In this document: positions 17,275 through 20,700 of the stretch, piece after piece
Layout of the letters: every line of letters starts with the position of its first letter
Position numbering within the stretch: position 1 is the stretch's first letter
DNA from: Candidatus Nomurabacteria bacterium
Lineage (GTDB): Bacteria; Patescibacteriota; Minisyncoccia; Phycocordibacterales; UBA918
Direction: 5' to 3'
Assembly: GCA_023898565.1 (NCBI GenBank)
Contig: CP060228.1
Location: 368,594-432,593, forward strand
Length of the DNA: 64,000 nucleotides
Notes under the pieces: model-generated
Database searches by the model: none
Seen by the model: only the letters and a program-made list of their open reading frames with translations
What the model was told of the DNA's origin: nothing
Translations under genes and position numbers: made by a program

Positions 17275-17706
17275 ATGTTCCACTCATACGTTCGCTATTT
17301 AAAGCGGTCACTCTATGCGGATAAGTACGATATTGTTCGTCCCTACCATAAGGTGATTGATTTGCTTATCAAGTTAGCTGGTCTCGCTTTTGCATTTACG
17401 GGAGCGTATCTTATTTACACAGCTTCATTTTGCTACTTCAAGCTACACTACATAGAGGTTAGTCCGACGTGCCAAATGATATTTACTCAAATTAATATAA
17501 ATGGTTTTTTGGCTAGTCGTGATGTTGTTGAAGTGTTGGTGATGCGTTGGTTGTGGGGTGCGGGGAATCTGTTGATTGCGCTCTTCGCGTCACAGGTTCT
17601 GATTGTACGTCATTTAAATGAAACGCTGCCGGATCATATATACTTACGTTGTTTTGCTGATGAAGAGCATAAGCGAAAGCGGTTGTCGATTGATGATACA
17701 CTGTAG
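17275..17706 (+). CDS. Hypothetical small membrane protein
   Basis: 143 aa with 2-3 predicted TM helices. First gene of a three-gene plus-strand operon. Confidence 0.4.
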   Translation: MFHSYVRYLKRSLYADKYDIVRPYHKVIDLLIKLAGLAFAFTGAYLIYTASFCYFKLHYIEVSPTCQMIFTQININGFLASRDVVEVLVMRWLWGAGNLLIALFASQVLIVRHLNETLPDHIYLRCFADEEHKRKRLSIDDTL

Positions 17707-17729
17707 GCACGCAACCGTATCGTGAAGCG

Positions 17730-18371
17730 TTGTTGCCTGGTAGGTCGTGCATAGACCCGGTTTTTTTGCCGGAGATTGAACATTGGTCATCTTTTCGTTG
17801 CGGTTCTTACACTGCAGATTGGGTAGCAAAAGCAATTGGCATCACTCATCCACCTGCAAATTTACTCTTAATTGGACCAATTTGGTTTGATTTGTTTCGG
17901 CCAATTACACCCCGAGACATGATGGAGCTATTTAAGGCAAGAGGTATGAATACCGTACAGATATTCTTGTCAAAATTAAGCGATGCGGAAAGGCTGCGTT
18001 GGCTTAAGTATCAGATAGCCGTCAGAAGAAGGCCGCCGGTCCTTTTGATTCGAACAACCACGTTGCACTGGCTTGCTGTTGGTGGGTACGATGATGATAA
18101 AGAGGTGTTTTATGTGTACGACCCCAATGTTGGCAGGGTGTCCACTGATCCAGATTTACCTATCGGGAATTGCATGTACCGTTACGATAAACTGCTACGT
18201 GTCTGGCGCGGAAGGTGGTGGTTACGTTATCGCTCCATTTTGGTTACTGAAGTTTCTCCTCGAGATTTATCAAACGAGAAAAAAGAATTGGTGTTAAACG
18301 CATACGCTCGGGGTGAATTAGTACATCAAAATCCAATGATTGAGAAAAGTCTGCGCTCACTTAGTGATTAG
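17730..18371 (+). CDS. Peptidase C39-like (papain-fold cysteine peptidase) domain protein
   Basis: FRCGSYTADWVAKAIGI resembles the C39 catalytic Cys region. LHWLAVGGYDDDKEVFYVYDPNVG matches the C39-like His ... Asp-Pro motif. Confidence 0.5.
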   Translation: MLPGRSCIDPVFLPEIEHWSSFRCGSYTADWVAKAIGITHPPANLLLIGPIWFDLFRPITPRDMMELFKARGMNTVQIFLSKLSDAERLRWLKYQIAVRRRPPVLLIRTTTLHWLAVGGYDDDKEVFYVYDPNVGRVSTDPDLPIGNCMYRYDKLLRVWRGRWWLRYRSILVTEVSPRDLSNEKKELVLNAYARGELVHQNPMIEKSLRSLSD

Positions 18372-18415
18372 GTTACGGCGGGCAATAATACGTGTAGAAG
18401 TGATACCATACACAC

Positions 18416-19270
18416 ATGGAAACAAAGTTTAATTATCAAGAAGCATTTTTACGAAACATCGGGTTGGTGTCTGAAGCAGAGCAACAAAAAATTGCTTCTG
18501 CAGTAGTCGCCATTCCCGGAATGGGTGGCGGTGGTGGGTCAAATTTGATTGCGCTCGTTCGACAAGGATTTCAAAAGTTTAAAATTGCTGACCTTGATAC
18601 GTATGAGCTGAAGAATTTCAATCGCCAGTATGGGGCCAGGATGGATACACTTGGTCGAAGTAAGGTGGATGTGATGAAGGAAGAGGTGTTGAAAATTAAC
18701 CCTCAGTGTCAAATCGAAGTATTCTCTGATGGAATCAATGAAACGAATATCGCGCACTTTCTGGACGGTGTTGATTTGTCGGTCGATGCGCTTGATGCAT
18801 TTGCTGTTGATACACGGCGTTTATTTTTCAATCAATCTTTACAAAGAAACATACCAGTTATTACGGCCGGACCAATTGGTTTTGGATCAGCATTCTTGAT
18901 TTTTATGCCGGGCGGTCCAAATTTTGATGACTATTTTGCTATTCATGATGGTATGTCGTACCAAAAGAAACTCGTCTCATTTTTGGTTGGGTTAGTACCA
19001 GCGCTTTTACAGCGTCCGTACATGAAAAAGACGAATCTTGAGGAAAAGCGTGGTCCATCATCGATGGGTTCGATTAATATTGGTGCGGGCATCGTGGCTA
19101 TATATGCGGTCAAGGTTTTGCTTCGCAAAGGGGTAATCCGAGCAGTTCCCTACTATCATCAATTTGATGTGATGCGCGACAAGTATGTAGTGAAGAGGTT
19201 GTGGTTTGGAAACCGAAATCCAATCCAAAGACTAAAGATTGCTATTGCTCGATATTTGACCAGTGATTAA
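18416..19270 (+). CDS. ThiF/MoeB/E1-like adenylyltransferase-fold protein (no zinc CxxC motifs; possibly TcdA-like)
   Basis: Gly-rich Rossmann loop AIPGMGGGGGSNL and the E1 signature KIADLDTYELKNFNRQ. Only one Cys in the whole protein. Confidence 0.7.
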   Translation: METKFNYQEAFLRNIGLVSEAEQQKIASAVVAIPGMGGGGGSNLIALVRQGFQKFKIADLDTYELKNFNRQYGARMDTLGRSKVDVMKEEVLKINPQCQIEVFSDGINETNIAHFLDGVDLSVDALDAFAVDTRRLFFNQSLQRNIPVITAGPIGFGSAFLIFMPGGPNFDDYFAIHDGMSYQKKLVSFLVGLVPALLQRPYMKKTNLEEKRGPSSMGSINIGAGIVAIYAVKVLLRKGVIRAVPYYHQFDVMRDKYVVKRLWFGNRNPIQRLKIAIARYLTSD

Positions 19271-19304
19271 AAAGAGCGCGGCCCGAAGGGCCGCGCTCTT
19301 TTTA
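19270..19304. terminator. Intrinsic terminator hairpin aaaagagcgcggccc-gaa-gggccgcgctctttt
   Basis: Perfect 15-bp GC-rich stem flanked by A and T runs. Confidence 0.6.
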
Positions 19305-19689
19305 GTATTCGAACACATCGCTCGACCGTAACTTCAAATCATCATTTTCCTCGAATTTGTATACCAGAAAACCAAACTACGTATTTTAATACTGTCAATA
19401 ATATTTTTACGGCTTTGAATAAAGCCCGTTTGAGATTATTTTGAGTGACGGTAAAAAGTGTATTTCGTCAATTGCCTTCGTGGTTGGCTCCGGTAAAATA
19501 GCTGGCGTACCAAGTTGTTGGTGCGAACGGGAGCCGTTGTGCTCTCTTTCATTTTTCTAAGTACGGAAGTAACGACAGAACAGCGGTGAGACCTAACAAC
19601 AGCCTATTCAACCCAACCAACAGCCAACTGAAGATCTGACGCATAGAAAGATTCAGCAGTGTTCATATAGTGCTACATTTACTACACGT

Positions 19690-20700
19690 GTGCGTGTGGC
19701 TACTGAGCTAACCGTTCTTGCTCTTGCGGTAGCTGTGCCGGTATCGGTTCATGCCGGCTTTTTTAGTAAGTTATTTAATAAGGCGGCAGCGGAAGTTTCT
19801 TCCTCAGCCCTATCAGCTGGAGTATCAGCAGCCGATACTCCCCTTTTAATTGCATTGCAGAACCCGAATCCTTTAAGTGGTCGCGGCGGCGCGGAGATTA
19901 TTGTCGATAATGATGTGTTGGTTTCAACAGGGCCAGTTGGTGAAGATGAGATTGCCGAGCAAAAAACTGGCATGGGCGAAATTCGCGTGTACACTGTTCG
20001 TGAAGGTGACTCGCTTTCTCAAATTGCAGAAATGTTTGGTGTCACTGCCAATACCATTATGTGGGCCAATGATATAACTAAGGCAAGTGCTATCCAGCCG
20101 GGAGATACTCTTGTTATTTTGCCAATTGTTGGTGTTCGTCATGTGGTCAAGAGCGGTGATACGATTAGTACTATTGCTAAAAAGTATGAAGGGGATGTTG
20201 CTGAGATTTTGTCGTACAATCAACTAGTATCAGCAGATGAGCTCACTGTTGGGTCAACTATTATTATTCCTGGTGGCGCTATGCACGCTGCGCCGGCTCG
20301 TGTGGCTGCGGCTGTTTCACCAGTGCGAGTATCTGGAGCGGGAGCGGCTTCTGCAAGTGGTTACTTTTCACACCCAGCTCCAGGTTCAGTTAAAACTCAG
20401 GGTATCCACGGCTATAACGCCGTTGACTTAGCTGGAGCGTACGGTTCGTCAATCAGGGCTGCAGCTGCTGGTGAAGTAATCGTTTCTAAGAGTTCAGGGT
20501 GGAATGGTGGTTACGGACAATATGTTGTTATTCGTCATGGGAACGGTTCGCAGACACTATACGCTCATTTGATGCGTAACGATGTGGGCGTTGGGGAGTA
20601 TGTGTCACAAGGGGAAGTGATTGGTGGTATGGGCAGTACTGGAAAATCGACGGGTACACACGTCCACTTTGAAGTGCGTGGAGCAACAAATCCATTTTAG
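19690..20700 (+). CDS. LysM-domain peptidoglycan DD-endopeptidase, peptidase family M23
   Basis: Signal peptide, two LysM repeats (GDSLSQIAEMFGV..., GDTISTIAKKYEG...) and a C-terminal M23 domain (GYNAVDLAGAYGSSIRAAAAGEV ... YAHL ... GSTGKSTGTHVHFEV). Confidence 0.85.
   Translation: MRVATELTVLALAVAVPVSVHAGFFSKLFNKAAAEVSSSALSAGVSAADTPLLIALQNPNPLSGRGGAEIIVDNDVLVSTGPVGEDEIAEQKTGMGEIRVYTVREGDSLSQIAEMFGVTANTIMWANDITKASAIQPGDTLVILPIVGVRHVVKSGDTISTIAKKYEGDVAEILSYNQLVSADELTVGSTIIIPGGAMHAAPARVAAAVSPVRVSGAGAASASGYFSHPAPGSVKTQGIHGYNAVDLAGAYGSSIRAAAAGEVIVSKSSGWNGGYGQYVVIRHGNGSQTLYAHLMRNDVGVGEYVSQGEVIGGMGSTGKSTGTHVHFEVRGATNPF

Follow-up and report, generated by a model that had tools for sequence, protein, structure and literature searches.

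Several bacteria use ThiF-like enzymes to process N-acyl amino acids. In the characterized homologs OxzB, TyzB, and TrzS, the ThiF part adenylates the carboxylate of an N-acyl amino acid and closes it to a 5(4H)-oxazolone (de Rond et al., bioRxiv 10.1101/2020.06.11.147165; PMC10404671; PMC12856293). OxzB of Pseudoalteromonas rubra is a ThiF-nitroreductase that, together with the N-acyltransferase OxzA, converts N-acyl tyrosine/phenylalanine into oxazolones in an ATP-dependent manner (de Rond et al., bioRxiv 10.1101/2020.06.11.147165). In Mycobacterium tuberculosis the stand-alone ThiF homolog TyzB performs the ATP-dependent cyclization and TyzC the desaturation (PMC10404671). For TrzS it was shown that cyclization precedes desaturation, and that the saturated cyclized intermediate builds up under oxygen limitation or with a crippled oxidase (PMC12856293). 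The planctomycetal stieleriacine clusters comprise a synthase, a methyltransferase, a ThiF protein, and a nitroreductase; ring-opened N-acyl dehydrotyrosines were observed as products, and the role of ThiF was called enigmatic (PMC12479983). A review from 2025 states that, apart from the pathways for ribosomally synthesized and post-translationally modified peptides (RiPPs), natural-product biosynthesis has no validated ThiF-like enzymes other than those of the OxzB type (PMC12596934). Here we compare these systems with a three-gene locus of a Candidatus Nomurabacteria bacterium, a member of the candidate phyla radiation (CPR), which lies in a stretch of 64,000 nucleotides (assembly GCA_023898565.1, contig CP060228.1, positions 368,594 to 432,593). 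This whole stretch is called the window in the following, and positions are counted from its first letter. The trio encodes a 143 aa membrane protein, a papain/C39-like protein, and a ThiF-family protein. A sequence-only reading had described these genes on the plus strand together with their characteristic motifs, which were found exactly there, and had brought them into connection with ubiquitin-like conjugation, anti-phage defense, or RiPP maturation. We consider it somewhat probable that the trio is instead a detached module of a CPR-specific N-acyl-amino-acid lipid pathway, in which Cys24 of the papain-like protein captures the acyl-amino acid activated by ThiF, and that it does not serve protein tagging.

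Judged from its sequence, the third protein of the trio (284 aa) belongs to the PRK08223 family and is intact as an adenylating enzyme of the ThiF type. Its ThiF domain comprises residues 13-260 and matches PF00899 of Pfam with an E-value of 1.5e-38, and the NCBIfam model NF006077 (PRK08223), whose family carries only the name “hypothetical protein,” is matched with 348 bits against a cut-off of 266. The protein also matches the ThiF part of PRK14851 (679 aa; 312 bits) and of PRK14852 (989 aa), and weakly, with 59 bits, the family model of Rv1355c (TrzS). It scores far under the cut-offs of the NCBIfam models for MoeB, ThiF, and SAMP-E1. Over 88 distinct family members, 44 columns reach a conservation of at least 95%, and the window protein keeps all 44; the residues G35, G37, G40, R70, K83, D124, and D127 are invariant in the family. 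D127 corresponds, by motif and not by alignment, to the adenylation-motif Asp D217 of TrzS; the residue mutated in TrzS D217A is the Asp at the Mg and the alpha-phosphate (PMC12856293). The protein has a single Cys (C98) and therefore neither a CxxC zinc motif nor a catalytic Cys, in agreement with the E1-like protein without zinc motifs that had been proposed from the sequence. Orthology to TcdA/CsdL, the tRNA ct6A dehydratase, which together with an unconserved gene linkage would have made the pairing with the peptidase gene a coincidence, is ruled out by score: NF011696 has a cut-off of 304 bits and gives 67.7, with an alignment limited to the N-terminal 155 residues. The linkage is conserved, as we will focus on below. 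The AlphaFold model (predicted local distance difference test, pLDDT, 91) shows the usual adenylation fold of the ThiF/MoeB/MccB type. Among solved structures, AclA of Tenacibaculum discolor (PDB 9egb/9egc), released in 2025 and described as “in complex with substrate,” comes closest to this model; a literature search on the function of AclA (9egb) yielded nothing useful.

The genomic context of the ThiF family leads to the oxazolone pathway. A scan of species-representative genomes gave 80 loci with ThiF relatives that are 39-70% identical, which come from CPR bacteria, DPANN archaea, Planctomycetota, Desulfobacterales, Pelagibius/Kiloniellaceae, Methylococcales, Bdellovibrionales, and Omnitrophota. 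The neighboring open reading frames (ORFs) were clustered and hidden Markov models (HMMs) of the families were built, the one for nitroreductases from stand-alone nitroreductases; the identity of the nitroreductase and FeeM neighbors was confirmed by Pfam. Outside CPR and DPANN, 22 of 66 loci encode a ThiF-nitroreductase fusion and 27 have a stand-alone nitroreductase at a distance of at most 300 bp. Within 10 kb, a nitroreductase is present in 55 and an N-acyl amino acid synthase of the FeeM type in 50 of these 66 loci. Many of the retrieved loci are planctomycetal and have the layout of synthase, methyltransferase, ThiF, and nitroreductase. This combination of ThiF, nitroreductase, and FeeM is the context of the published OxzAB/TyzABC/TrzAS/stieleriacine pathway for N-acyl amino acid oxazolones. 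The window ThiF is 42-49% identical to the ThiF domain of the 22 fusions. One fusion (L042; loci are numbered with the prefix L) matches PRK14851 from end to end (809 bits), and its oxidase half matches the Rv1355c (TrzS; 313 bits) and Acg flavin-oxidoreductase families. The window protein thus shares with OxzA/OxzB the ThiF domain, orthologs with ThiF-nitroreductase architecture, and an adjacent FeeM as N-acyl amino acid synthase in these orthologs' loci. We regard it as likely that it is a member of the oxazolone-pathway family and adenylates N-acyl amino acids as small molecules.

This context leaves hardly any room for a ubiquitin-like conjugation/deconjugation system or an anti-phage module of an E1 and a deubiquitinase-like protein, a reading that we regard as largely refuted. 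The E1-like fold would fit to it, as would partial PADLOC matches of the ThiF protein to the E1 domain of E1-E2 proteins, which are weak (at most 33 bits) and have no counterpart for the other two proteins, and some papain-fold deubiquitinases that appear low in the list of structural matches. However, the window encodes neither a ubiquitin-like protein (Ubl) nor an E2 or JAB protein, and the gene families that are conserved over related loci did not bring up any of them either, so that the lack of Ubl and E2 noted from the sequence is upheld. Moreover, the ThiF protein has no catalytic Cys or zinc motif, its orthologs are fused to flavin oxidases, and the trio is surrounded by housekeeping genes and not by a defense island. 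The suggested functions in conjugation, defense, or RiPP maturation did not find support; the family is tied to nitroreductases and FeeM instead.

The CPR relatives have their own version of the gene cluster. CPR ThiF clusters encode a phosphopantetheinyl transferase, an acyl carrier protein (ACP), FeeM, a PlsC-type acyltransferase, and one or two GDSL lipases, and additionally a DedA/VTT-like membrane protein, S-adenosylmethionine-dependent methyltransferases, and an exporter of MacB, ABC, and adaptor proteins. A phosphopantetheinyl transferase, an ACP, and a PlsC-type acyltransferase are encoded beside the papain-like and ThiF genes in L001, L003, L007, L008, L077, and L091, FeeM was seen in the sister loci L001, L003, L007, L008, L092, and L094, and a MacB-type exporter occurs in several sister loci, none of them as C39 fusion. 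The dedicated ACP and phosphopantetheinyl transferase suggest that the acyl donors are linked to ACP and not to CoA, which would be a difference to OxzA/OxzB, as is the CPR host compared to the proteobacterial one. The methyltransferases are a feature that the CPR clusters share with those for stieleriacines. In the mycobacterial Tyz and Trz systems, a flavin-dependent oxidase is always part of the set, and a papain-like protein, ACP, PlsC-type acyltransferase, and MacB exporter are missing. Three CPR loci (L010, L011, L014) retain a nitroreductase beside ThiF. Together with L013, these loci encode a phosphopantetheinyl transferase, an ACP, and a PlsC-type acyltransferase of their own, along with two GDSL lipases, a DedA/VTT-like protein, and a MacB exporter, and they contain neither a fatty-acid synthase nor an acyl-ACP synthetase. 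In DPANN archaea (Woesearchaeota/Pacearchaeota; L015 8421-10846, L029 8424-10858, L016), a gene for an AMP-binding protein similar to acyl-CoA/ACP synthetases directly precedes and overlaps the ThiF gene. ACP and phosphopantetheinyl transferase are missing from the eight DPANN loci, of which only one was seen to have FeeM. This arrangement looks like a further, archaeal variant of the pathway. Literature searches for oxazolones or N-acyl amino acid synthases in Patescibacteria or the candidate phyla radiation gave nothing relevant.

The second protein of the trio belongs to a rare and uncharacterized family that is restricted to CPR bacteria. Among 5.8 billion clustered proteins it has 13 close homologs, the sole named one being from Candidatus Moranbacteria. 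A profile search of 1.84 billion representatives gave six matches at E <=1e-30 and 162 at E <=1e-3, and a metagenome scan for further loci added only three short contigs. A papain/C39-like fold had been proposed for this protein. The window sequence itself stays under the Pfam threshold (PF13529, E 0.025, 15.6 bits against 24; BtrH_N, PF14399, E 0.27; no match to PF03412), but the fold is supported by its relatives, by structure prediction, and by the catalytic residues. In a set of 35 sequences, made up of the window protein and 34 remote relatives, 26 match PF13529 (Peptidase_C39_2; E <=0.01) and 17 match PF14399 (BtrH_N). Cys24, His113, and Asp131 are invariant in the family and nearly so over the remote relatives, and residue 18, the oxyanion-hole position of papain-like enzymes, is His or Gln. 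The AlphaFold model is of moderate confidence (pLDDT 76.5). With Foldseek, it matches best to C39 leader-peptidase domains (6mpz, PCAT1, ComA), with E-values of about 5e-4 and template modeling scores of 0.45-0.7 on the target, followed by acyl-enzyme structures of phytochelatin synthase and by staphopain. The protein has an additional C-terminal helical extension (residues 180-212), which is missing from the shorter family members. Since there is no N-terminal hydrophobic segment, it is probably cytoplasmic.

These structural matches are at the same time an argument for a RiPP-type module, in which ThiF would modify the C-terminus of a ribosomal peptide, similar to MccB, PaaA, IndF, and EnfB, and the C39-like protease would remove the leader. 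LahT150, PCAT1, and ComA share with the window protein the Cys-His-Asp triad and the Gln/His oxyanion position, they are double-glycine leader peptidases, and PaaA and MccB are among the structural neighbors of the ThiF model. Furthermore, ThiF-like enzymes are common in RiPP clusters, and some of these have a peptidase (PMC12596934). We nevertheless judge this reading to be very unlikely. No conserved precursor peptide was found, as had been stated before, and no conserved small ORF adjoins the trio; the region 19270-19690 contains no small ORF ending in GG. What is conserved in the neighborhood is FeeM, ACP, PlsC-type acyltransferase, nitroreductase, and methyltransferases; precursor peptides, YcaO proteins, and C39-ABC fusions are not among the conserved neighbors. 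The window papain-like protein is likewise stand-alone, is not fused to an ABC transporter, and has no evident leader-peptide substrate. Finally, with a ThiF domain of residues 13-260 out of 284 aa, the ThiF protein has no extra N-terminal peptide-binding domain, and its orthologs include ThiF-nitroreductase fusions whose substrates are small molecules.

The papain-like and ThiF genes are tightly linked. In all lineages with at least 3 kb of flanking sequence, ten out of ten, a PRK08223-type ThiF gene is located not more than 4 kb from the papain-like gene, which answers the proposal to check the conservation of this neighborhood. The ten lineages are window/L090, L006, L007, L003-5, L001-2, L091, L077, L008-9, L013, and L094-5. 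Even the papain-like relative of L094-5 (P0139), which is only 27% identical, is still linked to ThiF; P0144, a bona fide C39_2 protein slightly more distant in sequence, is not. The papain-linked ThiF proteins occupy two well-separated clades of the ThiF tree, so the pairing is not merely one inherited arrangement. The nitroreductase is distributed differently: it is present in none of the nine loci found via the papain-like protein and in four of the six CPR loci found via ThiF, most of which have no papain-like gene. In the second clade, a gene for a flavoprotein of about 540 aa with a FAD_binding_4 domain (PF01565) lies beside the papain-like gene (L008 2178-3779, L077 4171-5820, L094 554-2182), and this flavoprotein may substitute for the missing nitroreductase-type desaturase. 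An ACP gene is located directly upstream of the papain-like gene in L001, L002, and L091, and no such gene is present in the window. The papain-like protein as loader of the ACP was considered and ruled out. Since the nitroreductase clusters have ACP and FeeM without a papain-like gene, this protein is not needed for ACP loading or for N-acyl amino acid synthesis. As it is dispensable for substrate supply, it most plausibly plays its part in what happens to the ThiF product.

For this role we propose the following scheme. ThiF would use ATP to activate the carboxylate of an N-acyl amino acid by adenylation, as in OxzB, TyzB, and TrzS. Without a nitroreductase the ring would not be stabilized, and the saturated oxazolone (azlactone) or the adenylate could act as a reactive acyl donor. 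TyzB is likewise a stand-alone ThiF cyclase, and TrzS makes the same saturated oxazolone that is proposed here as substrate of the papain-like enzyme. Because ThiF has no nucleophilic Cys of its own, Cys24 of the papain-fold partner would attack the donor and form an acyl-enzyme thioester, and the N-acyl-aminoacyl group would then be passed on to an amine or hydroxyl acceptor or to water, by analogy with BtrH and phytochelatin synthase. The latter two share the papain fold, form an acyl-enzyme at a Cys nucleophile, and hand the acyl group to an amine. BtrH is an ACP:aminoglycoside acyltransferase closely related to C39 (PMC10318531); the window protein does not have its C-terminal domain, and the proposed donor is a carboxylate activated by ThiF and not an ACP thioester. 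The two-helix membrane protein might tether the reaction to the membrane, or supply or accept lipid there. In the sister lineages, the substrate would be made next door by phosphopantetheinyl transferase, ACP, FeeM, and PlsC-type acyltransferase and exported by the MacB pump. A role of the papain-like protein in transfer, taken for itself, is a possibility that we put forward tentatively. More speculative, and in our view improbable, is a complete relay from a small-molecule E1 to a thiol, in which the Cys24 thioester would be followed by ligation of the lipo-amino acid onto a membrane acceptor at the two-helix protein; as acceptor one may think of the head group of a lipid, of another amino acid, or of a protein, which is just as conjectural. 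Such a relay would resemble the one from E1 to E2 in the adenylation of a carboxylate by a ThiF fold and the subsequent capture on a cysteine thiol. It would differ from it in the predicted substrate, a lipid-like small molecule instead of a beta-grasp protein, in the position of the Cys on a papain fold instead of an E1 or an E2 with UBC fold, and in the lack of Ubl, E2, E3, and JAB genes in the window.

The same pathway could also contain a papain-like protein that is purely hydrolytic, as an amidase or thioesterase that makes no new bond. It could open oxazolones, de-acylate N-acyl amino acids or acyl-ACP, or free the substrate from lipopeptides of the host. The papain fold with a Cys-His-Asp triad is typical of hydrolases, oxazolones are labile in water, the planctomycete products are ring-opened N-acyl dehydrotyrosines (PMC12479983), and the GDSL lipases of the CPR clusters point to lipid scavenging. 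Yet it would be futile to spend ATP on an activation merely to hydrolyze the product, BtrH_N proteins and phytochelatin synthase, to which the family is related, transfer rather than hydrolyze, and the nitroreductase clusters keep ACP and FeeM without needing the papain-like gene for substrate supply. The stieleriacine clusters, for which the ring-opened dehydrotyrosines are described, differ from the CPR trio in that they have a nitroreductase and no papain-like gene. We therefore consider the purely hydrolytic version unlikely, and prefer the capture of the activated acyl-amino acid by Cys24.

Several observations weigh against this preferred interpretation. Searches of the 64-kb window with tblastn and HMMs revealed no FeeM, ACP, phosphopantetheinyl transferase, PlsC-type acyltransferase, or nitroreductase, and also no methyltransferase partner, GDSL lipase, FAD_binding_4 protein, VTT/DedA-like protein, AMP-binding enzyme, or ABC exporter. 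The window ThiF is thus stand-alone and paired with a papain-fold and a membrane protein, in contrast to OxzA/OxzB with their nitroreductase and N-acyltransferase. A word-indexed protein search with the FeeM of L007, which requires shared 5-mers and is of low sensitivity, gave nine matches, none of them on the 951,832-bp contig of this genome, which carries a protein (P0014) 100% identical to the window ThiF. The other pathway genes either lie elsewhere in the genome or are absent. The link from the window ThiF to OxzB and TyzB is indirect and runs through NCBIfam models, fused orthologs, and the literature. The role of the papain-like protein is deduced from gene context, fold, and chemical logic, and its best structural matches are leader peptidases and not transferases. 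L013 carries both the nitroreductase and the papain-like gene, and therefore the two are not strict alternatives. Last, the normal ATG of the papain-like gene is an ACG in the window.

The positions of the three genes and of the terminator behind them are summarized in Table 1.

Table 1. Genes of the trio and the adjoining terminator, with positions in the window.
Feature	Position	Strand	Source
Small membrane protein ORF, 143 aa	17275..17706	+	ORF list
Papain/C39-like ORF, 213 aa, CGSYTADW...HWLAVGGYDDDKEVFYVYDP	17730..18371	+	ORF list
ThiF-family ORF, 284 aa, GMGGGGGS...NFNRQ	18416..19270	+	ORF list
Intrinsic terminator hairpin: 19-bp stem, 3-nt loop, T-run	19266..19306	+	folding + terminator scan

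The first gene codes for a protein with two hydrophobic segments in its hydropathy profile (residues ~27-52 and ~85-112), which correspond to two predicted transmembrane helices, and thus its early description as a membrane protein was correct. An alignment of seven homologs shows a conserved C-terminal juxtamembrane motif, VVRHLNETLPDHIYLRCF, followed by a variable C-terminal tail. As this tail is not conserved, the protein itself as a substrate that is adenylated at its C-terminus is ruled out. It has no matches in Pfam, NCBIfam, or PADLOC. In L003-L007 and L090, the gene just upstream of the papain-like one encodes a homolog, as does the gene just upstream of ThiF in L077.

The papain-like gene has an unusual start in the window. 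Its homologs are 220 aa long and begin with an ATG that sits 2 nt past the stop codon of the upstream gene, a gap that suggests translational coupling of the membrane-protein and papain-like genes. L006 and the 99%-identical relative L090 have this ATG, which is changed to ACG at 17709-17711 of the window. The next in-frame start is a TTG at 17730, and translation must therefore begin either there or at a non-canonical codon. The ThiF gene is followed by a hairpin (19266-19306) with a perfect stem of 19 bp, a folding energy of -33.6 kcal/mol, and a z-score of -8.13; none of 200 shuffled sequences folds equally well, and a terminator scan recovers the hairpin in part. With such a strong terminator right after the ThiF stop codon, the trio is a discrete transcription unit at its 3' side.

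The closest relative locus, L006, has the same synteny of RsmA, UvrD, a 141 aa protein, the papain-like protein, and ThiF. Between window and L006, the rate of nonsynonymous substitutions (dN) is 0.18 for the 143 aa protein, 0.19 for the papain-like protein, and 0.08 for ThiF, and synonymous sites are saturated; purifying selection acts on all three genes of the trio. In L006 (8643-9302), L003, and L007, an antisense gene for a UbiE-type methyltransferase sits between the papain-like and ThiF genes. It is cleanly absent from L090 and from the window, where a spacer of 44 nt (18372-18415) is found at this site. As the next sister lineages, L007 and L003, carry the full lipid cluster beside the trio, the trio-only state of the window is derived. 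One could thus take the trio for a decaying remnant that was left without function after loss of the lipid cluster, all the more since the partner genes are missing from the 64 kb, the methyltransferase gene is deleted, and the papain-like ATG has become ACG. This we hold to be very improbable: the three ORFs are intact, dN against L006, with the same trio-only layout, is as low as 0.08-0.19 at saturated synonymous sites, the catalytic and family-conserved residues are all retained, and so is the terminator.

Upstream of the trio, genes for an RsmA-type methyltransferase and a UvrD-type helicase (annotated from the syntenic locus L006) are located on the minus strand. Downstream, a LysM/M23 peptidase gene follows on the plus strand at 19690, and then a long minus-strand ORF. 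In the intergenic region that follows the ThiF terminator and ends at the LysM/M23 gene, some 200 nt (19440-19640) are about 95% identical to L006 10346-10571. This block is conserved although flanking synonymous sites are saturated and the proteins are only 74-87% identical. Several short ORFs overlap the block in the window and in L006. There was nothing convincing in Rfam, and the folding z-score is near 0 for both strands. It could serve the M23 peptidase gene as a leader or regulatory element, or else be a small RNA.

The ThiF family is widespread in CPR bacteria and DPANN archaea, and the publications consulted here describe the pathway for Pseudomonadota, Actinomycetota, and Planctomycetota only. 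While the chemistry of ThiF is already known, the distribution in CPR and DPANN, the ACP-based cluster, and the pairing of ThiF with a papain-fold protein are new relative to the searched literature. The trio represents a sub-variant: ThiF is joined by a rare cysteine enzyme of papain fold, and a flavin desaturase is usually not present. The analysis also sets right an annotation error that suggests itself, as “E1 plus cysteine peptidase” is easily taken for ubiquitin-like signaling. If the relay onto a membrane acceptor were true, it would mean that CPR bacteria, which are unable to make fatty acids, build or remodel aminolipids from scavenged acyl chains in an ATP-driven manner. If the capture by Cys24 is true, an enzyme would be using a biological azlactone in a new way, and there would be a starting point for learning how ultra-small symbionts that lack fatty-acid synthesis produce their surface lipids.

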